From IMG/VR virus record IMGVR_UViG_3300014208_000001, positions 165,318 to 229,317 of that record: a DNA stretch of 64,000 nucleotides. One strand, 5' to 3'. Shown piece by piece: positions 1 to 39,256 of the stretch; the first letter of the stretch is position 1, and every line of letters begins with the position of its first letter. The notes beneath the pieces were generated by a model. The model was not told the DNA's origin, did no database searches, and saw nothing but the letters and a program-made list of their open reading frames with translations. The translations under genes were made by a program, and so were the position numbers. This DNA is from a virus (Duplodnaviria; Heunggongvirae; Uroviricota; Caudoviricetes).

Positions 1-356
1 GCTGGTTGGCTCATTGGTTGGACACCAACGAGGTTGTCAGCGATTAGCTTGGGGTAGCTTTTGCGGAGCAGTGGTAGGGCAAACCGTGTGAAGTCTGCGA
101 TGTCTGCTGTTGTGGTTTGGGTTTCTGTCAGCAGGCGGCTTTTGCCGTTTGGTGACATGTGGTTGTATTGGTTCTCGAGGATGGCGGCCATTAAACCAAA
201 TTTCTTTGGTTCAATTTCTGGACATTTGGCGAGAACTGGTGACCACTTTTTGACATATTCGTTGCGTTTTGATTCGCTGAATAGTCGTGCTTTGTGGGGG
301 TCGGCGTTGAAGTTTTCTGTTAGCGTTGATTGTCTGGAACTTCTTGTTGGTAACAT
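1..356 (-). CDS. major capsid protein, gp23-like (N-terminal ~118 aa; gene continues past window start)
   Basis: Minus ATG at 356 with an AAAGGGA RBS. Translation MLPTRSS...KKWSPVLAKCPEIEPKKFGLMAAILENQ...RKSYPKLIADNLVGVQPMSQPA matches T4 gp23 NKWKPLLEGEGLPEI...IFENQ...RRAIPNLIAFDICGVQPMNSPTG. Confidence 0.8.
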   Translation of the reverse strand, partial: MLPTRSSRQSTLTENFNADPHKARLFSESKRNEYVKKWSPVLAKCPEIEPKKFGLMAAILENQYNHMSPNGKSRLLTETQTTTADIADFTRFALPLLRKSYPKLIADNLVGVQPMSQP

Positions 357-403
357 TCTGATCCCTTTTATGACCAATTTTTCAGATTATTAGGGTATTG
401 CAA

Positions 404-1042
404 TTAGTCGAGTCCGTCGGCTATTGCGGCGATTGGGTTGCGGTTCTGGTTTTCGAGGATAGTTGGTCTCGTTGATTGGGCCTTTGCGGGCTTATTACGA
501 TTTTGGTCTATTCTCTTTGTTTGACCAGTACCTTCTGTTAGCGTTTTGGCTGGTGTAGCCTTCGATTCATTGAGTTTTCTCTCAATGGTTCGATTACGTT
601 GGAGTGCTTTTTCAGCTAGTGCATTGGCTCTATTAGCCCGTGCGATTGCTGTGTCGCGCTCCTCTTTTAGAGTTGCCATTTGGTCATGCAGGGCTTTAGA
701 ATCCTTATCGCTTTCTCCAATTGTTATGCCCTCTAACGACTGACGTATGTCGCGGAGCTTGGATAGAGCATCGGATTCCTTAAGGGCCGAACTCTTGATG
801 AGTTTTCTTTCGATAGCGGACACTTGGCTCTCAAAGAAGATTTGGACTTTGCGAGCTAGATCACGCTTATGAGTGTCGACTTCTTCGACACAGATTTTTT
901 TGGCTTCTTTGATCTTTTCTTTTAGTTCAAGATCGGCCTGTTCTCTGATATCTTTCCGATACTTTTCTAAACTCTCAACTATTTGAGATGATAAAGTTTC
1001 GGAAACACCAGCTTGTTTGAACAGTTCACGAATCTTTTCCAT
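404..1042 (-). CDS. prohead scaffold/core protein (gp22-like, coiled-coil, K/E-rich)
   Basis: A 212-aa charged, heptad-rich protein lying immediately upstream (on the minus strand) of the gp23-like gene, as gp22 does in T4. Confidence 0.45.
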   Translation of the reverse strand: MEKIRELFKQAGVSETLSSQIVESLEKYRKDIREQADLELKEKIKEAKKICVEEVDTHKRDLARKVQIFFESQVSAIERKLIKSSALKESDALSKLRDIRQSLEGITIGESDKDSKALHDQMATLKEERDTAIARANRANALAEKALQRNRTIERKLNESKATPAKTLTEGTGQTKRIDQNRNKPAKAQSTRPTILENQNRNPIAAIADGLD

Positions 1043-1164
1043 TATACTATCCTTAAGGTAATCGAAGGTTCTGTAATAACTTTGCTGGAGAGCTTATAAT
1101 TTTATTTAATTCTAAATATATATTTGAGCGAATTAAATAATTGTTATTTAATTAAACAATAATG

Positions 1165-14190: not shown

Positions 14191-14730
14191 ATGAATAGAT
14201 TCATCAAATTGTCTGATTTAGTAAAATTTATCGCTGATATTATAAAATACTTATCACGTAAAAAACCAATCCCCCCAGAACCAAAACCAATTCCAACCCC
14301 GGAACCACCTCCAAAGCCAACCCCAATTCCACCTCCAGAGCCAACCCCAGAACCCACGCCTAAAACACCAACCGAATTAGCGATTGATCAATTATTATCA
14401 TCACACAATAAACTACGGCAGACACCATTAACCATTAATACTAAATTAACGGCAGCAGCTCAAAAACATGCCGAATGGATGGCGTTTAATAATACATTAT
14501 CGCATGTCGGTGATAAAAGATCACAGCCATGGACAAGAACATCATGGGAAGGCTATGAAAATGGATTCGTTGGTGAAAATATCGCATTCGCTTACTCATT
14601 AGACCAAGTGATGCCAATGTGGTTACAATCACAAGGACATAGAAGAAATATTTTAGATTCTAATTATAAAAACATAGGAATAGGTATTAAAAATAATTAC
14701 TATTGTGTTGTATTTGGAGGTGGTGATTAA
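14191..14730 (+). CDS. CAP/SCP (PR-1, YkwD-like) domain protein with Pro/Thr/Glu-rich linker
   Basis: HN..R, GENIAFAYS and GHRRNIL..NYKNIGIGI motifs, plus a PEPKPIPTPEPPPKPTP linker. Confidence 0.6.
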   Translation: MNRFIKLSDLVKFIADIIKYLSRKKPIPPEPKPIPTPEPPPKPTPIPPPEPTPEPTPKTPTELAIDQLLSSHNKLRQTPLTINTKLTAAAQKHAEWMAFNNTLSHVGDKRSQPWTRTSWEGYENGFVGENIAFAYSLDQVMPMWLQSQGHRRNILDSNYKNIGIGIKNNYYCVVFGGGD

Positions 14731-15149
14731 TTAGAAGTCCATTCAGATTCTATTTTTTTATTAGACAATTGATTAAATTGATTAAATTCATCCTCACATA
14801 AATTAAATTCTATATGCCTTTTATCAATATATCTAACATTGGACATCACAACCATATCAACCATACAATAATATAATACATACGTGCCATTTAAATCTTT
14901 ACCAGACAATTCACAATATATTGATTGAGTCGGCTTAAAATTTTTTATCAATCTATTCTTTATTTCTTCTCCGCAATTTTCACAACAATCGATACTTTTA
15001 ATAATACGTTCTAATAATATTGATCTTATTTCTGGCTTATGATTTACAACATTTACTTTTCTAAAATCCATTGAATAATATGTAAATTGCGATTTAACCT
15101 CTATTTTACACAAGTCACATACTATTCCATCTTTTGATTTATTAAGCAT
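14727..15149 (-). CDS. Cys-rich hypothetical protein (CxxC ... CCxxC)
   Basis: A 140-aa ORF coupled to the terminase stop. Confidence 0.4.
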   Translation of the reverse strand: MLNKSKDGIVCDLCKIEVKSQFTYYSMDFRKVNVVNHKPEIRSILLERIIKSIDCCENCGEEIKNRLIKNFKPTQSIYCELSGKDLNGTYVLYYCMVDMVVMSNVRYIDKRHIEFNLCEDEFNQFNQLSNKKIESEWTSN

Positions 15150-18100
15150 TATTCACCTTTTCGTTTAAAATAATATTTTGGTGGTGTTACAATAGGACCA
15201 TTTTTAGACATTGGTATAGCACCTAACTGATAAGTAAATGCATCTAATTGACGCTGAATATTTTGTTCAGGCATTTCATCTGGCGTGCCAACAAATGGTA
15301 AAAATGGATTACCAGTCGCATTTACTAATTGTTTATGGTATTGAACCATTTGATCATCAGTAAAGATAGTAGGCCCAGCCAAACTAGTAAAATCAGAAGA
15401 TGATAACACCGGCCCAGCAGAAACCGATGAAAGTGCAAACGAATCATTAATAGCCACCAACGCTAACGCAAAAGCCATAACAAGATCGTCAAAATTATTA
15501 GCACCTTCTTCAGCTTCAGTCTTTCCAGTATCCCTACCAGATTTGTCTCTTTTTCTAACATACGTATTAAATTGCTTCAATAATCTCCTGCTATAAACTT
15601 TATACCCAGCATCATCTTCGTCTCTAACATAATCTATTAATAACCTGTTCAAAATCGGTTTAGATGCCATAGTAGTAAAGAAACCATATCTATCAATTTT
15701 CATAGCTCGCTGTGTACTACTCGATGGTCTAGGTTTATCATTGATGTCCTTTTTGCGCCATATATTAGGATAATTAAATTCATGTCGTAGAGCATCTATT
15801 AAATTATCACCACCATTATTGCGTTCTAATACTAACATAGCATTGTTATAATATCTTCCCAAATAATCAACAAATCGTAAAAATTGTTTTGGTAAGCATC
15901 TTACCATCATTTCAGCTACTTGTTCCATTGTTATTGCATCTAATATTTCTAATGCATGATAATCTTTACCTTTACCAGTTGCAAAGTCGACACCCATAAC
16001 ATATATATGAGGTGGTTCACCTGGTGATATTATTTGATTATTTCGCATTTTTGCTGGTTTTGCTTGTATCGGATGCTCCCACACCCACAAACCAGATTCA
16101 GATTCTTGCTCATTGAAACTTAATTCTTCTGATTCTCCTGTGCTTGGATTTGTGTATAATATTGTATTAGTGACTCTATCTGGTTCTTTCATAGTTGTAG
16201 CTAATTTAGTTAATACTGATCTAGTTATAACTGTATTACCAGAGCCAATAAATGATGCTAAAACTTCCTGGTTAAATTTCCATCCTTCACCTTTTTCTTG
16301 CAGACCGCGCCATTGTTCTTCTAACCATGGTGACCAATATGGACCATATTTATCTTCTTCTTCTTTAGTGGTACATTTTCTCAATCCGTCTCTTGGTGCT
16401 ATCCGTACTAATTCTCTACTTAAACTATCTCTATATTCAATATTCCAATCCATATCCCACCAATTAACACATATCGGATTAAATACATTATCGCCAGCTT
16501 CAGCTTCTGTCCACGTGCCCCAATACCAGTTGCCGACTCCATTCGTATTCGCGTGTACAGTGCAGTCACCGATAAAAGTGTGTGTGTTTGGTAATGTGAA
16601 ATCATATACTTCCGCTTCAGAATCTTCTAATGATTTAACCTCATTGAACCAATCATATTCTAATAATTTAATAAGAGAATCATAAGCGTCATTACCTTCA
16701 TATGAAATCTTACTCATAAACGAAGCGAGACGATCTTTAGTTATCCTTGATCTTGATCCATAAAGAACATTTGGGGCTAATCCCAATTTAGTCATTTTAG
16801 CGATTGAAAGATCAGTTGTGTCTTTTAATTGTTTTAAAAGATTCTTAACAACTGGTGGCATTAACTCAGACCAAACTGACGTCTTATTTTTTTGTAAAGC
16901 TTGTTTTCTACCCAAATCAAAACCAATAAGATCATAAAACAAATTTGTAAAATTGTTAGAAACATATAATCGATATGATTCACGAGTATCATGTGTAGTG
17001 GTCTCACCATTATTACGTTTAAATGACGTCATACCAGGCGGCGATATTTCTAAATATGTATGTATTCCATAATTAAATAATAACATCCTAACTTGTTTAA
17101 TAAGTTTTTTAGATGTAGAAGTATAACAAACTTGCCCTTTTCTCGTTAAAGCAGCACCATCACCATCAAACAATCCTCTAAGAAAATTCCTTATTATTGG
17201 TTCAGAACATTGTAATAATCTTTTTGGTATAGTTTTAAATGGTGCTATTGTACATTCAACACCAAGATATTTAAGAAATCTAACAAACATAGGTGATGAA
17301 CATACCGTAACATAATCTTGCCCTTTTCTTCCTCTATTCCAATTAATATTGCCCCAAGATTCGCATCGATCTAGAACTTTAGAATCACCACACGACAATA
17401 CCACTTCAGCAGTAATTTTACCATTTTTTCTAATTGTTTCTCTTACATGACCTTCAGCTATAATAACACCAAGCATATAAGCAATATCTTCATCCATCTT
17501 TTTTATTTGAAAAATTGGTGAGTTTAAATTATCATCTCTATAACTCTTATTACGATCTTCATAATTTAATATATCATTATTTCCGAAAACCATTTGCCCA
17601 GCTTTAACTGGCAGGAAGTCTCCGATCTGTAAATCTTGAATATATTTATTATTTATAGTCCCATTAGATGACACAACTGGCAATTTGTGTAATAATGATG
17701 CTTCGAATTCATAGCAACAAGATGTTTTAACAATTTTAGTTGCTTCTTTTGGTCTTTTATAAAATTTAGTAGCTGGTTCTAAACCATCAATCCCAACAAT
17801 ATCTGGCCCCTTATAATCAGTATGATAATAACCATCATCAAAGCCATCGTATTCATGAGGTGCTAAATCTTGTATTTCACATAAACCGTTTGCAGTATTA
17901 ATTAAAGTATCTGGTGCCACACATGTACTAATTACTATTGTACTACCACCGTGAGTCATGGTTGAATAACCGGCTGCCCACATCACATCCATATCTTGAA
18001 TAAATGCTGCTTCGTCTATTATATTCAATGATGATGCATTTGATCGTAAAACATCTGGGTGTGATGTCATAGATTTTATAACTGTACCATTAGTAAATGC

Positions 18101-19516
18101 TATTGCGTGTTCATTCCATCCTTTTCTGCCTGTGGTGCCTATACGTGGTGCCCATATATCTTGCATCCACTCTGGTAAGTTATTAAATAAGAACGCCACA
18201 TTCTCTTTCAGAAATCCTTTGGCGTCTTCATCTCTACGAGAAACGATTAATATTGTTTTATTTGGGTTGAACATCGCAAACCATAATGCGAATGCCCCAG
18301 ATACTTTCGATATACCACAGTTATGAACAACAGCCCCATCAACAATATAATTATTATATGGTGGAACATTTAAATCATAAACACATCCATCACCTTTAAC
18401 ACGTTTAATAGATTTAATATCACCTTTTTCTCTATTAAAAAAGAATCCCTTAGTTATTTGATTACGTGGCTTTTTACCATAAATACCAATATATTGTACA
18501 AATCTATTAAAATCATCTTTACCAATTATACGTAATTTTGGTATTGTTGTGGTCGTGCGTGGATAATATACAGCATTAATATTAAATCTAGTTAATAATT
18601 GCTTCAGCTGATGAAGCATTGTAACCGATTCTAATCCTATTCCAGCTTCATTACAATTGCCGCCAGAATACCATCCATCACCGGCAAACATCCTATTAAT
18701 TAATACTGCTATTGATTTATTGTCCCATTTAAACACATCGCTCGGTATTGTTTTATCAGCTTTTATCTTATTAAGTATATTATATCGATCTGCCCAACAC
18801 GTAGCAGCAACACATGTAGTTTGCAATCTATAATTCTTAGTCGATTCTGGTTTAAATCCACTCTCATGTTTTCGTATTGTTAATTGTAATCCGAATCTAT
18901 TTTTAAAACATTTTTGATATTCTAATAAATATTTCCAACATGAATTATTAAATGTGACAAATCTGCCAGTTGATCCATCAGTCAATAAGTATCCTAATAA
19001 TATTGGATCATTATGATTAGGAGTATATCCATATCTTTCAATATCATTGATTTCTATTAACTTCTTATTGCCTATCAAATCACCAGCTTTTATATATCCA
19101 TTATTTGTTAAATACTCATGGTCATATGTGGCTATTGATCTATGTCCAGATTTGGATCGCACTTCTACAAGATTATCAGAAATACCATTATTATAAACAT
19201 CATTTACTGGTACTGCTTCTATGGCGTTGGTATGATAATTTAATGTATAAACCAAATCACCTTTATTAATCTGATCTATGCGTTTTGGACCATTTGGTCC
19301 CCAAACCATTTGGTCACCAGCAAAACACTGTCTACATTTTTTAAATATATTAAATCTATGCTGTTTAAATGCATTCAACGCCATTTTCTGATAGCTGAAT
19401 AATTTAAACGGTAATATACCAGCAGACGGATGCTTTACTTTACCAAAATTCTCTAAAAACCACGATATCGATTGTCTAGATCGTAAAATAACTTGTTTTT
19501 GAGTATCATTCATCAA
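15149..19516 (-). CDS. terminase large subunit, gp17-like, interrupted by two inteins
   Basis: The extein sequence FKKCRQ/CGISKVSGAF...IIDEAAF...IVIST/TNGVGNWYW parallels T4 gp17 SRQLGKTT...IYIDECAF...IIITTTPNGLNHFYDIW. The nuclease half HALEILD matches gp17 HALHIID. Confidence 0.9.
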   Translation of the reverse strand: MMNDTQKQVILRSRQSISWFLENFGKVKHPSAGILPFKLFSYQKMALNAFKQHRFNIFKKCRQCFAGDQMVWGPNGPKRIDQINKGDLVYTLNYHTNAIEAVPVNDVYNNGISDNLVEVRSKSGHRSIATYDHEYLTNNGYIKAGDLIGNKKLIEINDIERYGYTPNHNDPILLGYLLTDGSTGRFVTFNNSCWKYLLEYQKCFKNRFGLQLTIRKHESGFKPESTKNYRLQTTCVAATCWADRYNILNKIKADKTIPSDVFKWDNKSIAVLINRMFAGDGWYSGGNCNEAGIGLESVTMLHQLKQLLTRFNINAVYYPRTTTTIPKLRIIGKDDFNRFVQYIGIYGKKPRNQITKGFFFNREKGDIKSIKRVKGDGCVYDLNVPPYNNYIVDGAVVHNCGISKVSGAFALWFAMFNPNKTILIVSRRDEDAKGFLKENVAFLFNNLPEWMQDIWAPRIGTTGRKGWNEHAIAFTNGTVIKSMTSHPDVLRSNASSLNIIDEAAFIQDMDVMWAAGYSTMTHGGSTIVISTCVAPDTLINTANGLCEIQDLAPHEYDGFDDGYYHTDYKGPDIVGIDGLEPATKFYKRPKEATKIVKTSCCYEFEASLLHKLPVVSSNGTINNKYIQDLQIGDFLPVKAGQMVFGNNDILNYEDRNKSYRDDNLNSPIFQIKKMDEDIAYMLGVIIAEGHVRETIRKNGKITAEVVLSCGDSKVLDRCESWGNINWNRGRKGQDYVTVCSSPMFVRFLKYLGVECTIAPFKTIPKRLLQCSEPIIRNFLRGLFDGDGAALTRKGQVCYTSTSKKLIKQVRMLLFNYGIHTYLEISPPGMTSFKRNNGETTTHDTRESYRLYVSNNFTNLFYDLIGFDLGRKQALQKNKTSVWSELMPPVVKNLLKQLKDTTDLSIAKMTKLGLAPNVLYGSRSRITKDRLASFMSKISYEGNDAYDSLIKLLEYDWFNEVKSLEDSEAEVYDFTLPNTHTFIGDCTVHANTNGVGNWYWGTWTEAEAGDNVFNPICVNWWDMDWNIEYRDSLSRELVRIAPRDGLRKCTTKEEEDKYGPYWSPWLEEQWRGLQEKGEGWKFNQEVLASFIGSGNTVITRSVLTKLATTMKEPDRVTNTILYTNPSTGESEELSFNEQESESGLWVWEHPIQAKPAKMRNNQIISPGEPPHIYVMGVDFATGKGKDYHALEILDAITMEQVAEMMVRCLPKQFLRFVDYLGRYYNNAMLVLERNNGGDNLIDALRHEFNYPNIWRKKDINDKPRPSSSTQRAMKIDRYGFFTTMASKPILNRLLIDYVRDEDDAGYKVYSRRLLKQFNTYVRKRDKSGRDTGKTEAEEGANNFDDLVMAFALALVAINDSFALSSVSAGPVLSSSDFTSLAGPTIFTDDQMVQYHKQLVNATGNPFLPFVGTPDEMPEQNIQRQLDAFTYQLGAIPMSKNGPIVTPPKYYFKRKGE
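16547..17923 (-). mobile_element. intein 2 (459 aa, LAGLIDADG) in terminase before the T(P)NG motif
   Basis: Starts CVAPDTLI and ends TVHAN, followed by Thr. Has MLGVIIAEGHV and LRGLFDGDGAA motifs. Confidence 0.75.
18320..19327 (-). mobile_element. intein 1 (336 aa, LAGLIDADG homing endonuclease) in terminase Walker A P-loop
   Basis: Starts CFAGDQMVWG and ends VVHN, followed by Cys. Has LLGYLLTDGS and FAGDGWYS dodecapeptides. Codon boundaries were verified on the DNA. Confidence 0.8.
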
Positions 19517-35514: not shown

Positions 35515-35898
35515 TTACAAGCCGTTAAATGGCGACGTATGATCATTAGCTAATTTATATTCCGCTAATTTATATGCCGCAAATTGATCTAATGCTTTAT
35601 AACATGTTACAATTGCCGAGTTCACAACATTTTCAATAACGTCATTGTCTATTAATTGGATTGTATATTCTATAATTTTTGAATATGTATATGTGCCCAT
35701 TGGCGAACTATACATAATTATGATATCTGCTCCTGATATTTCTATTTGTACCATGAATAAGTGATGTGTATATAATAATATATGCATATCAGAACCTAAT
35801 ACTTCAACTATATCGAATCTATAGTGTGATTTTTTGTCTAATTCTTCTTTTATTATTTTAATTATATTGTTATGCAAGCTCACATTTGTCGCCGTCAC
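35515..35898 (-). CDS. hypothetical protein
   Basis: A 127-aa ORF overlapping the RNR 3' end by 29 nt. Confidence 0.35.
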   Translation of the reverse strand: MTATNVSLHNNIIKIIKEELDKKSHYRFDIVEVLGSDMHILLYTHHLFMVQIEISGADIIIMYSSPMGTYTYSKIIEYTIQLIDNDVIENVVNSAIVTCYKALDQFAAYKLAEYKLANDHTSPFNGL

Positions 35899-38800
35899 AG
35901 AATTTGCTGCCTATAGCTTCATTTATAAAAGATGAAAAATCTAATTGTTTGATTTTGCTATTATATTCGATGACTTCTTCTCTTGTACATGGTTCATATG
36001 GCGCTTGCTGATAACCGTGATCGGTGTGAGGAAGAAAACTTATCCCTTTTAATTTGTCTTCGAATACTTCACAAACTTCAGCTAATGTGTGGGCTTCTTC
36101 TTTTTTAAATTTTATTGTGCAACTAACTTGATTGTCTGCCCAATATGCTTGATAATCAGATGCTAACGCCATTTGACTGTACATCGAAACTTCTTCGACT
36201 GGTTTAACACGTTCATCGGAAATCGCGAATTTAGCGACCATTGTGTTTGGGTCACCAATCATTGGTTCGATATGATATCCTGCATCTTTCAAAATATCGA
36301 CTAAAATTGAATCTTTTGATAATCTCATGCGACGCCAATAATTTTTAGCTTCCGGGTAGTGAATACCAGGTGTTGCGCCAGCAACTAGACTGACCGATCC
36401 ACTTGGTTTGACCGATGTCACTTTTATAGATCCGTTCACGCATAGCCATTCACTATAAATGTTATCCCAATGTTTAATTTCTTTATAACCATTATCACAG
36501 AAATCGCGTAATAATTTTCGACGGCCAAATTTTGCTATAGCTTGAACGATTCCACTTTGTGATAAGCCTATTCTTCTATTTCTTAACATAACTTGGTTTG
36601 TGCGAGGGTTATGTGTTGGTAATAATGTAACTGTTTTGCCATATAAGTATGCATATTTAAGAGTACGCATATAATCTTCAGATGATTCATGATTGGCTGG
36701 GAAAGTTTCTACTAATGTGCATAATTCATGGTCTTCTAACGTTTGTTCGCTACATTGGCCTATTTGATATCCATTAATTACTATTTGGTTATTAATCGGC
36801 TCTGTTAAACAAAACGTATCTTGTTTGCCAATATATTCAATCGATTTCACTTTAACATACTTACCTGTGTCTGAATTATTTGATCCACAATGCTTTGATA
36901 GCCATTCTCTAGCATTTATTGATTTCCAATCTTGAATAAAACCAATTTGATCTAAAAATGCTGTTACTTGTTTCATACCAGAAATTATTAATTCCCAATT
37001 TGCCTTACGATTATATAGTTTTCGACCACCATTCCCATCATTCATAAGTTGCTTGCCAGCAGACTTTCTAAATTGCACAGTGCTAGCGATATTAAATTGG
37101 TTCAATAATAATCTGCAGTCAGACAGCAAATCACGATTAGATTGATTGATTCTAACCGAAATCGTGCCGTTATCAGATATTAAAACGCACCCATCGGCGG
37201 ACGCTAACCCTTTGATAAATGCACTAATAGTTTCCCTATCGCCATTCCATATACTAGATGGAATAGCATGCTTATTTCCGTTAACAATCCCATCGTTTTT
37301 CAACATTCTACCAAGAACATTAGATCCAACTCTGACTTCATCATGATCAAAATGTTCTTGATCTCTATGCCACCCGGCATATGCCGGCGACTGCACAGAT
37401 GATTTATTATGAATATAATATAATTCAGTTAACAATGCAGTGATACGTGGTAAAACATTTTCGACATCAGATTCATAACATGTACATTCGGCTCTGACTT
37501 GCCCATCTGATTTTGGCGATAGAGAGCCATCACCAATGCACCACCCTGCTAATTCAGCATACACAGTATTACGATATGTGCCAAAATGAACTGTCTGATT
37601 CAATGGTACCATATCACCAACTGAGAGTTCATTTAAATGAACTCTATTTTCATTGTATCTCACTCTTTTCTTACCATTTATTCTAATAGATTTCTTATTT
37701 AATTTTATAAAATTATGATTGGCTGTGGCATCAACATATGAATTATCATCAAATATCACACGCCACAAATCGATATTTTGGCCTGTTCTGTATACTTTGG
37801 TCGCTTCAACAACGCCGTTTCTGTTTACAACATTTTGACTTCCATATTTTAATATTGGATTATCAGTTAATCCATTATATTCTTGCATACCTGATTGAAG
37901 CCATAAGTCAATTAATTGGATATATCCATTAGCAGTTAATAGCTTGTTTGATCCGGCTAAACACGGATTACTTCCGACAGCCCTACCATCAACGCCAGGA
38001 TTAAATCCATCTATCATTCTACCATAATCTCGCATATTATCTAACCATATAAAACCTGGCTCACCATTTACAGCTATGCTAGCTGCATATTTAGTATAAT
38101 CCATTCCAACATGAGCAACTATCGAATTATTCGACGCCCATCTATGCGCATTTAAATAATTCCATGTTTTAACACAATAATCTAATTTATCGCCTTTAAT
38201 ACACGTATCTTCAAAATCACCATACACAGCAACATATCTATCAATATCATATAATTTAGTCGTTACTTTATAAAAGTCAGCAACTTCATCTTTTGTAAAC
38301 CCTGCAACTGGGTTTTTCATATTTATATAGTCATTGTCGTCATATTCTCCGAATGTGATTTGTGCGGTTCTACGCACGTTGCCAGCGACAACACATTTGC
38401 CAATAATATTCATTAAATCAGTTATATCAACACTCGTCAAATACCGATCAATTCGCGATTCAAGTAATTGTCTTATAGAATTATGCAACGATATTAATAT
38501 TTGCGCACCACTAGCTTTACCGCCAAATCCTTTAATATCTGACCCAGCCGGCCTAATATGATCATATTCAAATTCCATATATCCTAAATTAGGATATTTT
38601 GTATATGATTCAATAAGCAATCGTAACGATTCTACCCATGATTCACGCGAATCACCAATTACAAATGTATTTGCGGTATCATCATATGGAGAGCGTACTA
38701 ATAATTTATTCGCCCCTTTGGTATCGAATCCGACACCAACGCCGAGCATTGACATATCCATCATAAAGCAGAATGGTTCTGCTGGTTCAGTATCTATATT

Positions 38801-39256
38801 ATTAGTGGATATCATAGCGCAATTATTTAATGCTGCGCTTCCTCTACTCCACATAAATTCTGTACCCATCATCCATAGACCACGTCCTGGGGGCAAGAAT
38901 TTGAAATCCCACATTCTCTGAAACATTTCCATCGCTGATGGAACTGCTTTGTCATAACTCCATGGGATATGTAATTTTTTGCAGTGCCTTCTTTGTATCT
39001 CGTATGTGCCTTCTGTCACACGCCTTAATGTGTCTTCGAAGTTTTCTTTTGAATTGTCGGCTTTTAATCGTGAATATGTTCTGTAATAAACTATTTCACC
39101 TAATCCGTTGAATCCGAAATTAGGCTTTCTTCCTCTATATTGATTTATAAAATCTTCTGGTAATTGAAAATAATCATCTTCGACTGATGAGTAAGAACTG
39201 AAATAATTTTCTGATATTTTTTGATTCACTATTGAGGACATTAAACATTTCTCCAA
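35870..39256 (-). CDS. nrdA: ribonucleotide reductase large (alpha) subunit with one intein
   Basis: The extein is 725 aa. The intein splits the active-site motif, and the spliced product reads GSNP-CSEQ (compare SNLCSEI / NPCGE). The C-terminal tail has CDGDKC. Confidence 0.8.
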   Translation of the reverse strand: MEKCLMSSIVNQKISENYFSSYSSVEDDYFQLPEDFINQYRGRKPNFGFNGLGEIVYYRTYSRLKADNSKENFEDTLRRVTEGTYEIQRRHCKKLHIPWSYDKAVPSAMEMFQRMWDFKFLPPGRGLWMMGTEFMWSRGSAALNNCAMISTNNIDTEPAEPFCFMMDMSMLGVGVGFDTKGANKLLVRSPYDDTANTFVIGDSRESWVESLRLLIESYTKYPNLGYMEFEYDHIRPAGSDIKGFGGKASGAQILISLHNSIRQLLESRIDRYLTSVDITDLMNIIGKCVVAGNVRRTAQITFGEYDDNDYINMKNPVAGFTKDEVADFYKVTTKLYDIDRYVAVYGDFEDTCIKGDKLDYCVKTWNYLNAHRWASNNSIVAHVGMDYTKYAASIAVNGEPGFIWLDNMRDYGRMIDGFNPGVDGRAVGSNPCLAGSNKLLTANGYIQLIDLWLQSGMQEYNGLTDNPILKYGSQNVVNRNGVVEATKVYRTGQNIDLWRVIFDDNSYVDATANHNFIKLNKKSIRINGKKRVRYNENRVHLNELSVGDMVPLNQTVHFGTYRNTVYAELAGWCIGDGSLSPKSDGQVRAECTCYESDVENVLPRITALLTELYYIHNKSSVQSPAYAGWHRDQEHFDHDEVRVGSNVLGRMLKNDGIVNGNKHAIPSSIWNGDRETISAFIKGLASADGCVLISDNGTISVRINQSNRDLLSDCRLLLNQFNIASTVQFRKSAGKQLMNDGNGGRKLYNRKANWELIISGMKQVTAFLDQIGFIQDWKSINAREWLSKHCGSNNSDTGKYVKVKSIEYIGKQDTFCLTEPINNQIVINGYQIGQCSEQTLEDHELCTLVETFPANHESSEDYMRTLKYAYLYGKTVTLLPTHNPRTNQVMLRNRRIGLSQSGIVQAIAKFGRRKLLRDFCDNGYKEIKHWDNIYSEWLCVNGSIKVTSVKPSGSVSLVAGATPGIHYPEAKNYWRRMRLSKDSILVDILKDAGYHIEPMIGDPNTMVAKFAISDERVKPVEEVSMYSQMALASDYQAYWADNQVSCTIKFKKEEAHTLAEVCEVFEDKLKGISFLPHTDHGYQQAPYEPCTREEVIEYNSKIKQLDFSSFINEAIGSKFCDGDKCELA
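36755..37963 (-). mobile_element. RNR intein (403 aa, LAGLIDADG) inserted at the catalytic Cys; non-canonical C-terminus ...NGYQIGQ/C
   Basis: Starts CLAGSNKLLTANGY. Has LAGWCIGDGS and IKGLASADGCV motifs. Ends Gly-Gln rather than His-Asn, with Cys at +1. Boundaries were verified codon by codon. Confidence 0.75.

Follow-up and report, generated by a model that had tools for sequence, protein, structure and literature searches.

In a 64,000-nt stretch of viral DNA (Caudoviricetes; positions 165,318 to 229,317 of IMG/VR record IMGVR_UViG_3300014208_000001; hereafter the window), the terL gene is interrupted in frame by two large insertions, which are very probably functional inteins with homing endonucleases. 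Judged by sequence and predicted structure, the host protein is a large terminase (TerL) of the T4 gp17 type, belonging to a T4-core myovirus of approx. 355 kb for which metagenomes are the only source. Intein 1 is inserted inside the P-loop of the ATPase domain and intein 2 inside motif III (the C or coupling motif). The architecture of the gene, the exact junctions, the conservation of catalytic residues, the predicted folds and a patchy and incongruent distribution among relatives carry this assignment; splicing, DNA cutting and present-day homing are what we infer from them.

Gene structure and coordinates

The terL precursor gene covers 15149..19513 on the minus strand (stop codon at 15149-15151). 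An initial annotation, made from the sequence alone, had counted 1455 codons, 795 of them in inteins. The latter number is borne out, while the former holds for the mechanical open reading frame (ORF; 15149..19516, minus strand) counted from the TTG at 19516. The start codon is almost certainly not this TTG but the ATG at 19513, because the latter overlaps the TGA stop codon of the upstream gene and has a GGAG 7 nt upstream. Translation from this ATG would give a precursor of 1454 aa and 165.5 kDa, and 1454 aa is also the length called for the terL product in public assemblies (P0001). The upstream gene encodes a 462-aa protein without assigned function, and the overlap (aatTGATGaat; window 19511-19516) suggests translational coupling of the two genes. 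Together, the two inteins (795 aa) make up 55% of the terL ORF, and an extein of 660 aa (from TTG) or 659 aa (from ATG) is left. The 4.4-kb ORF contains neither a stop codon nor a frameshift. Smaller ORFs in this region, antisense or in alternative frames (16113-16685 on the plus strand, 18132-18326 on the plus strand, 16420-16605 on the minus strand), were set aside as low-complexity shadows of the long ORF.

All parts of terL lie on the minus strand. The N-extein (19328..19513; 62 aa from ATG) ends with KKCRQ (19328-19342), the first half of the P-loop. It is followed by intein 1 (18320..19327; 336 aa, CFAGDQ...AVVHN; aa 64-399 when numbered from TTG, as are all precursor residues below), which is of the class-1 type and contains a LAGLIDADG endonuclease. 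Its block B, ATYDH, is found at 19118-19132, its two LAGLIDADG motifs at 18971-19000 (LLGYLLTDGS) and 18671-18703 (LINRMFAGDGW), and blocks F-G (VYDLNVPPYNNYIVDGAVVHN) at 18320-18382, with Cys as the +1 residue. The middle extein (17924..18319; 132 aa) begins with the second half of the P-loop, CGISK (18305-18319), includes Walker B with the catalytic Glu, NIIDEAAF (18002-18025), and ends with the first half of motif III, IVIST (17924-17938). Intein 2 (16547..17923; 459 aa, CVAPDT...CTVHAN; aa 532-990) likewise contains a LAGLIDADG endonuclease, with block B, EASLLHKL, at 17681-17704, LAGLIDADG motifs at 17447-17479 (YMLGVIIAEGH) and 17153-17185 (FLRGLFDGDGA), and blocks F-G (VYDFTLPNTHTFIGDCTVHAN) at 16547-16609; its penultimate residue is Ala and the +1 residue is Thr. 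The C-extein (15152..16546; 465 aa) starts with the second half of motif III, TNG (16538-16546), and continues with the remaining ATPase domain and the RNase-H-like nuclease domain, of which the Asp in YVMGVDFATG (15974-16003), the Glu in LVLERNN (15815-15835) and the DD in NNFDDLVMAF (15470-15499) were located. Thus, the flanks are KKCRQ and CGISKVS for intein 1, and IVIST and TNG for intein 2. The initial annotation had described the first insertion as CFAGDQ...VVHN followed by Cys, between CRQ and CGISKVS, just as it is found at 18320-19327. For the second (CVAPDT...TVHAN before Thr), it gave the correct place and the penultimate Ala, but the insertion does not merely precede TNG; it splits motif III.

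The joined exteins form a T4-type large terminase

In the unspliced ORF, Pfam recognized, at scores far beyond chance, intein-related families only (LAGLIDADG_3, 98 bits; Intein_splicing, 66 bits) and no terminase, and JGI labels this exact protein as ‘intein/homing endonuclease’. After splicing in silico, which yields ...GGSTIVISTTNGVGNW... across the second junction, the extein matched Terminase_6N (PF03237) with 34.1 bits (cut-off 22) over a region spanning both junctions. The spliced protein was aligned to T4 gp17 (3CPE/3EZK) using phmmer with an E-value of 1.5e-24. Paired in this alignment are Walker A (KKCRQCGISKVS opposite NLSRQLGKTTVV; kkcrqcgiskvs opposite nlsrqlgkttvv), Walker B with the catalytic Glu (NIIDEAAF opposite IYIDECAF) and motif III (STIVISTT-NG opposite SKIIITTTPNG), and two acidic residues of the nuclease (gvD, lE) stand opposite the corresponding gp17 columns. 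Alignment with the gp17 structure 3CPE had been proposed as a check by the initial annotation, which equated the position of intein 1 with SRQLGKTT of gp17; the paired Walker A columns agree with this.

Invariant in the family are the ATPase residues K, R, Q, G, S, D, E, S and T, as well as the nuclease residues D381, E435 and D546-D547 (P0121 numbering), the third Asp being assigned by conservation only. Walker A is deviant, reading K-x-R-Q-x-G-x-S-K with invariant K, R, Q, G and S, and a Lys does not follow the Gly. At extein residues 59-68 (19328-19342 plus 18305-18319), where the family has K-C-R-Q-x-G-x-S-K, Ile, Ala or Val replaces the lysine of the T4 GK; an invariant Lys is located five residues before the Gly and a near-invariant one after the Ser. 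This form resembles the lambda gpA type, and the Pfam match of TerL to GpA_ATPase is weak (E = 0.003).

The allele closest to the window’s terL, P0121 (locus L003, 1191-3155), is 74% identical and contains zero inteins. Its AlphaFold model (predicted local distance difference test score, pLDDT, 78) matches gp17 3CPE with an E-value of 3.7e-28, and the nuclease fold of the model matches the RB49 gp17 nuclease domain (template modelling score, TM, 0.76). In this model, the insertion site of intein 1 (site b) falls within the P-loop, which connects strand 54-59 to helix 65-79, and that of intein 2 (site g) directly after strand 188-191. The mature extein shares the two-domain ATPase-nuclease architecture and the motifs with T4 gp17 (3CPE, 3EZK, 2O0H), and a T4-type portal gene is found near the window’s terL with two small genes between. 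On the other hand, identity to T4 gp17 is only approx. 20-25%, Walker A is G-I-S-K with an upstream invariant Lys versus G-K-T-T, T4 gp17 has no inteins, and the extein ends with a poorly modelled C-terminal tail of approx. 90 aa.

PHROG TerL families match the extein fragments of the unspliced ORF; some of these profiles (890-940 positions) appear to include inteins themselves. As TerL is a hallmark and phylogenetic marker of tailed phages, intein-laden genomes can be missed or misplaced in marker surveys of huge phages unless inteins are excised first.

Intein-free alleles define both junctions

A search with the spliced extein found 636 relatives at E-values up to 1e-10. Among the best 120 of these 636, approx. 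three quarters have a length of 630-675 aa and are insert-free. Comparison with intein-free alleles, also suggested by the initial annotation, showed that 83 of them (630-699 aa, up to 74% identical) align to the spliced window protein without a gap at either site. These empty alleles read KCRQ-x-G-(I/A/V)-SK at site b, with Ser (41), Ala (30), Cys (6) or Val (6) at the variable position, and IVISTTNG at site g. We accept the exact boundaries because only these regenerate uninterrupted alleles. The initial annotation had named a misassigned Cys1 or +1 nucleophile as the weak spot of its interpretation; Cys1 with Cys+1 for intein 1 and Cys1 with Thr+1 for intein 2 are the only assignments which reproduce the uninterrupted alleles. 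At site g, the +1 residue is Thr, Ser or Cys in 82 of the 83 empty alleles. At site b, Ala or Val is found there in 36 of 83; judging from their sequence, such alleles could not support splicing as a +1 nucleophile is missing. The empty sites of P0121, whose DNA is identical to the spliced junctions of the window in 47/60 nt at site b and 50/60 nt at site g, are candidate targets of the endonucleases. P0121 has Cys at +1 of site b (CRQCGISK), which is common to only 6 of the 83 intein-free alleles, the rest having Ser, Ala or Val. This Cys could be the footprint of a precise intein loss or a pre-adapted site.

Since the source is metagenomic, the arrangement might in principle be an assembly chimera or a sequencing artefact. 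The probability of this is close to nil, as the identical 1454-aa product is found with the same neighbouring genes on four contigs from independent assemblies, including one of 355,685 bp (ENA), one of 63,127 bp from a different run (Logan) and one from JGI, and inteins occupy these two codons in dozens of homologous alleles as well.

Predicted splicing domains and endonucleases of the two inteins

By its residues and its HINT profile, intein 1 is a canonical class-1 intein. It matches Intein_splicing (PF14890; 49.2 bits, cut-off 35.8) and LAGLIDADG_3 (PF14528; 46 bits, cut-off 22.5), the DnaB mini-intein 4O1R can be aligned with both its N-terminal and its C-terminal half, and profiles of homologous inteins cover aa 64-399 end to end (E = 1e-159). 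The expected residues are Cys64 in block A, A-T-Y-D-H (TxxH) in block B, VYDLN in block F and VVHN before the +1 Cys. Among 53 homologues, C1, the B:10 His, the F:4 Asp and the terminal His-Asn are present in 53/53 and the B:7 Thr in 52/53. Both LAGLIDADG motifs have the acidic residue (Asp).

Intein 2 is covered end to end (aa 532-990) by profiles of homologous inteins as well (E = 1e-212). It has C532, H610 (ASLLH), D972 (VYDFT), a block F with Asp and His (H979 in THTF; VYDFTLPNTHTF), N990 and T991; in 20 homologues from site g, C1, the B:10 His and the F:4 Asp are present in 20/20 and the terminal Asn in 19/20. Again, both LAGLIDADG motifs have the acidic residue (Glu, Asp), LAGLIDADG_3 is matched with 63.5 bits (cut-off 22.5) and the endonuclease domain is similar to the PI-PkoII sequence (E = 6e-8). 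An AlphaFold (AF2) model of intein 2 reached a pLDDT of 90.2 and a predicted TM score (pTM) of 0.90. In Foldseek, its best match over the whole length is TliVMA (7QSS; E = 8.5e-24, TM 0.69-0.72), followed by PI-PfuI, PI-PkoII and PI-SceI, and I-DmoI is also matched. Therefore, the predicted structure of intein 2 has the HINT fold, despite a Pfam score below the cut-off (see below). With TliVMA, PI-PfuI (1DQ3), PI-PkoII (2CW7) and PI-SceI (1VDE) the predicted fold shares HINT, a two-motif LAGLIDADG domain and extra helices (E = 8.5e-24 to 1e-10); these solved endonuclease-inteins differ from it in sequence (11-18% identity), in their archaeal or yeast hosts (V-ATPase, ribonucleotide reductase, DNA polymerase) and in having a canonical His-Asn terminus. 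The best match to intein 2 in a deposited phage is the terminase intein of Psychrobacillus phage Perkons (MT325768, ORF209), which is similar over the full length (26% identical), has a LAGLIDADG endonuclease and interrupts a TerL ATPase. However, the Perkons intein occupies the classic P-loop site (GFGK/T) of another TerL type and has a canonical end (SHN/T).

Weak Pfam matches to Hint_2 and PT-HINT might point to non-splicing domains of the Hint/BIL type, or to other accessory domains, which remain permanently in TerL. These matches score under their cut-offs and overlap with the Intein_splicing match. Further, each insertion ends in Asn, is followed by a +1 nucleophile and contains an entire LAGLIDADG endonuclease, an insert of 38 or 52 kDa in the P-loop or motif III is incompatible with the ATPase fold, and the intein-free alleles are exactly colinear. 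We consider permanent domains hardly credible and effectively refuted already.

Patchy distribution and probable mobility

Relationships of the inteins do not follow those of their hosts. Intein 2 is 77-79% identical to inteins whose TerL exteins are only 55-58% identical to that of the window, and the best relatives of intein 1 are 56-60% identical although their TerLs are only 44-48% identical. Conversely, TerLs with 58-62% identical exteins contain inteins which are only 47-53% identical, and the Spearman correlation between intein and extein identity is -0.34 (p = 0.014). Since this incongruence is combined with a patchy distribution and intact endonuclease motifs, homing is supported, and we argue that it would explain the distribution of the inteins.

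A co-conversion tract was sought in the 40 codons flanking intein 2 by comparing the window with P0002 (a TerL with three inteins). Amino acid identity there is 68-72%, slightly above that of the distal extein, but this stretch holds the best-conserved motifs in any case, so the difference carries no weight for such a tract. Synonymous divergence was rejected as evidence for a recent transfer of intein 2, as synonymous substitutions per site (dS) are saturated and third-position identity is only 0.53 versus 0.47-0.50; what speaks for transfer is the incongruence at the amino acid level together with the patchy distribution. Base composition gives no argument for a foreign origin of the inteins, since the guanine-cytosine (GC) content of inteins (0.31-0.32) and exteins (0.355), also at third codon positions (GC3; 0.17 versus 0.23), differs too little.

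Intein 2 and the missing penultimate histidine

Several points weigh against the interpretation of both insertions as functional, mobile inteins. First, the penultimate residue of intein 2 is Ala989 instead of His, its B:7 residue is Ser607 instead of Thr and its Intein_splicing score (PF14890) is 25.1 bits, below the cut-off of 35.8. Second, dS between window and relatives is saturated (1.4-2.1; intein 2 1.9, extein 2.1), so that the higher identity of intein 2 is undatable and could partly reflect constraint. Third, splicing and cleavage by the window inteins are deduced from sequence. Finally, the window represents 64 kb of an approx. 355-kb genome, and a second, uninterrupted terL could be located elsewhere.

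The first of these points can be compared with the other inteins at site g. In 11 of 20, the penultimate His is absent (A, T, I, M or L instead), and these 11 are the nearest to the intein of the window (53-79% identical). All 11 keep a His in block F (THTF/THTY), Cys1, the B:10 His, the F:4 Asp and the terminal Asn, followed by Thr or Cys at +1. In contrast, of the nine site-g inteins that end canonically (His-Asn or His-Gln), only three have the block-F His. Splicing is known for natural inteins that lack the penultimate His, according to the works cited for this in PMC4031507 (references 74, 87; Chen, Benner and Perler, 2000; Ssp DnaE, Sun et al., 2005), where block-F residues are thought to take over the assistance of Asn cyclisation. 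We therefore regard the missing His as variation rather than disqualification, and the block-F His may compensate for it in the clade of intein 2. As in Ssp DnaE and similar inteins, position G:6 is not His (Ala in intein 2), yet intein 2 still has its terminal Asn and a +1 nucleophile. Their hosts are unrelated, however, and in TerL the loss defines a whole site-g clade (11/20). If true, this clade would be a possible natural experiment in the catalysis of Asn cyclisation.

Selection points in the same direction. Between intein 2 and its relative in P0002, nonsynonymous divergence (dN) is 0.15 and dS 1.95, giving a dN/dS of approx. 0.08 across the full intein, a sign of purifying selection acting on the element as a whole. 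These data also bear on the proposal that intein 2, possibly together with intein 1, is a remnant that is in decay or impaired in splicing, in which case the precursor would be non-functional or only cleaved, and the phage defective or using another terminase. Such a remnant would fit the penultimate Ala, the B:7 Ser, the low Intein_splicing score and the fact that only a part of the genome is seen. Nevertheless, we consider it improbable: the residues named above are conserved throughout the 11 His-less inteins, dN/dS is low, the 4.4-kb ORF and the acidic residues of the endonucleases are intact, natural His-less inteins such as Ssp DnaE splice (as cited in PMC4031507), the phage cannot do without TerL, and independent assemblies contain this very allele.

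Probable dependence of packaging on splicing

On the preferred interpretation as functional inteins, two homing-endonuclease inteins would have invaded terL. In the 165.5-kDa precursor, a 38-kDa insert splits the P-loop (KCRQ/CGISK) and a 52-kDa insert splits motif III (IVIST/TNG), so neither ATP binding nor coupling would be expected, and pentamer assembly would also be blocked until excision, following the argument of Kelley et al. (2016). The HINT domains would excise themselves after translation by the class-1 pathway, starting with an N-S acyl shift at Cys1. By trans(thio)esterification, the chain would then be passed to the Cys+1 of intein 1 or the Thr+1 of intein 2, after which the terminal Asn would cyclise and an acyl shift would create the peptide bond. 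The products would be a mature TerL of 75.2 kDa and the two inteins (38.3 and 52.1 kDa), which would now be free LAGLIDADG endonucleases. During mixed infections, the endonucleases may cut intein-less terL alleles at both sites, and repair from the intein-bearing copy would spread the inteins, i.e., homing. It is a reasonable inference that packaging depends strictly on splicing, as the initial annotation had stated; the same dependence has already been drawn for mycobacteriophage TerL inteins (PMC5050341).

Splicing might, in addition, be conditional and act as a post-translational switch on packaging, which would add to the above explanation without excluding it. One example would be a redox trap formed by Cys-3 (C61), Cys1 and Cys+1 of intein 1; another, a slow Asn cyclisation in the His-less intein 2 which delays terminase maturation. 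Three cysteines indeed surround junction 1 (KKC-RQ/C...N/C), and block G of intein 2 is non-canonical. Disulfide-controlled inteins exist. Conditional splicing and selective retention at ATPase motifs have been discussed for TerL inteins (PMC5050341). However, C61 is present in 78 of 83 intein-free alleles and is thus a feature of the extein, not specific to the intein; approx. three quarters of the closest alleles, the nearest relative included, are intein-free, and no regulatory need is evident. We consider a switch unlikely, though less so than a decayed intein.

Intein sites in the TerL lineage

Large insertions were mapped in 118 intein-bearing relatives; each starts with Cys and ends with Asn or Gln before Cys, Ser or Thr. 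Numbered by the extein residue preceding them, the insertion sites are 60 (site a, K/CRQ; n = 23), 63 (site b, window intein 1; n = 50), 177 (n = 5), 182 (n = 65), 188 (n = 13), 189 (n = 1), 194 (site f, inteins ending in HQ; n = 7), 195 (site g, window intein 2; n = 20), 291 (n = 1) and, in the nuclease domain, 380 (n = 1). Most proteins carry a single intein (64 cases), but two (45), three (8) and five (1, P0097) were also observed. More distant T4-type TerLs have extra sites at 184 and 185, and site 291 recurs there. At E-values up to 1e-3, the family numbers 7116 homologues. Contigs with these TerL alleles reach approx. 300-400 kb.

Sites a and b, three residues apart in the P-loop, never co-occur; the same is true for f and g, which a single residue separates in motif III. 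Site-a inteins of full length share 43-53% identity with intein 1 of the window and are clearly homologous to it. A drift of insertion sites is suggested because homologous inteins occupy neighbouring codons and the members of the pairs a/b and f/g are never found together. With at least 10-11 sites within approx. 330 residues, site drift and the His-less clade at site g, the TerL lineage of T4-core huge phages might be among the densest intein hotspots in any protein, and an unsurveyed one; we offer this tentatively and hold it to be somewhat doubtful. The many sites, combinations and empty alleles make this TerL family material for studies on intein homing, site drift, interference of neighbouring inteins and His-less splicing.

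Some individual alleles deserve mention. P0097 is a 1738-aa TerL homologue with five inteins after extein residues 63, 182, 188, 195 and 291, four of which are mini-inteins of 139-181 aa, and an extein of 648 aa. Two intein-bearing homologues, P0057 and P0113, are labelled in NCBI as proteins of metagenome-assembled genomes (MAGs) of Lokiarchaeota and Bacteroidia; they are probably from phage contigs binned into these MAGs. Next to the three-intein TerL P0002, the thymidylate synthase product has 544 aa (locus L004, 9080-10714), approx. twice the usual length, and this gene may also be invaded or fused.

Comparison with published TerL inteins

TerL is the most common intein host in mycobacteriophages, with seven sites in the ATPase domain; two of these lie in the P-loop at a distance of one residue, and another falls in the C-motif of Terminase_6 proteins (Kelley et al., 2016, mBio; PMC5050341). 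In the same study, P-loop and C-motif TerL inteins spliced efficiently, their endonucleases were active and splicing was concluded to be needed for function. The inteins TerL1-a/b (P-loop) and TerL6-f (C-motif; e.g., Chandler gp6) hit the same two ATPase motifs as those of the window, contain LAGLIDADG endonucleases and are patchy among related phages. Adjacent alternative sites are found in both cases (one residue apart there, one or three in the family of the window), and splicing was judged necessary for the formation of the active site and the oligomer there as well. In contrast to the window, the hosts are small actinophages with one intein per TerL, and splicing and cleavage have been demonstrated. 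In addition, P-loop site a of the mycobacteriophages is located between Lys and Thr of GKT, whereas the window site lies between Q and the residue before Gly. A close sequence relationship is not detectable; the best match to either window intein in deposited phage genomes is at most 26% identical. For actinophages as a whole, 293 TerL inteins were counted in a 2025 preprint (10.1101/2025.01.02.630785).

A TerL in three in-frame pieces with two inteins was described by Yutin et al. (2021) for a crAss-like phage (Delta-group cMAG OBYQ01000140; PMC7886860). It is similar to the window’s gene in forming a single terL ORF with three in-frame extein pieces in an uncultured phage rich in selfish elements, but it belongs to another phage order and TerL lineage and contains a recoded stop codon. 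Huge gut phages are reported to be rich in introns and inteins (PMC12880540); in Jug-phages, terL genes are split by group I introns (PMC12880540), in the window by inteins. Consequently, P-loop and C-motif TerL inteins and double-intein TerLs are already published (PMC5050341, PMC7886860). The window differs from these in detail: the P-loop into which intein 1 is inserted is of the deviant form K-x-R-Q-x-G-x-S-K, and intein 2 belongs to a site-g clade without the penultimate His. The window would add a clear case in which the packaging motor and a ribonucleotide reductase (RNR; see below) work only after splicing at catalytic residues, with the same logic as in actinophage terminases.

A third intein and the genomic context

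The initial annotation reported three large LAGLIDADG inteins for the window, and indeed, besides the two in terL, a third one of 403 aa (36755-37963, minus strand) is present in a class II RNR gene (35870-39256, minus strand). Its junction is GSNP/CLAG...IGQ/CSEQ, i.e., with a C-terminal Gln and a penultimate Gly instead of His-Asn. The spliced RNR aligns across the junction to the Lactobacillus leichmannii reductase RTPR (1L1L; E = 8.5e-89), and the +1 Cys falls on the cysteine of NPCGE, which we take to be the thiyl-radical Cys408 of RTPR. RNR is therefore the second enzyme of the window in which the +1 splice nucleophile, here the NPC(G/S)E cysteine, is presumably a catalytic-site residue. 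Intein profiles searched against all 138 six-frame ORFs of at least 80 aa matched terL and RNR only, so no fourth intein was found in the window. Neither group I/II introns nor tRNAs were detected in the whole window using Rfam (gathering thresholds) and ARAGORN.

Neighbours of terL encode a Cys-rich protein of 140 aa, the T4-type portal and, on the opposite strand, a protein with a CAP domain, and no small terminase was recognisable adjoining terL. Tail sheath, baseplate J, a gp5-like OB domain, a helicase and the class II RNR are also encoded in the window. By its gene content, the source is a T4-core huge myovirus without a close deposited relative. A megablast search of the terL gene against 50,697 deposited phage genomes gave zero matches, and with tblastn, TerLs in these genomes were at most 30% and inteins at most 26% identical, leaving no cultured relative as a model.

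A few further observations concern the surroundings. The CAP-domain (PF00188) protein at 14191-14730 (plus strand) has a Pro-rich repeat linker and is antisense to its minus-strand neighbours in the interval between terL and portal; in locus L003, a 179-aa gene without a recorded Pfam match is found in the same antisense position. Window positions 1-1050 have a GC content of 45% versus 34% for the window and a strong T-over-A skew, with minus-strand ORFs at 404-1042 and one running off the window start; this segment may have been acquired recently. Two adjacent paralogous SPFH/Band-7 proteins of 532 and 512 aa are encoded at 29414-31012 and 31230-32768 (minus strand), in a block of approx. 40% GC at 26-33 kb. 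Finally, the window portal matches LR756508.1 (an uncultured 484-kb phage) at 146015-149428 in three pieces over 3.4 kb, which suggests that the portal gene of that phage is interrupted by an intein or intron.

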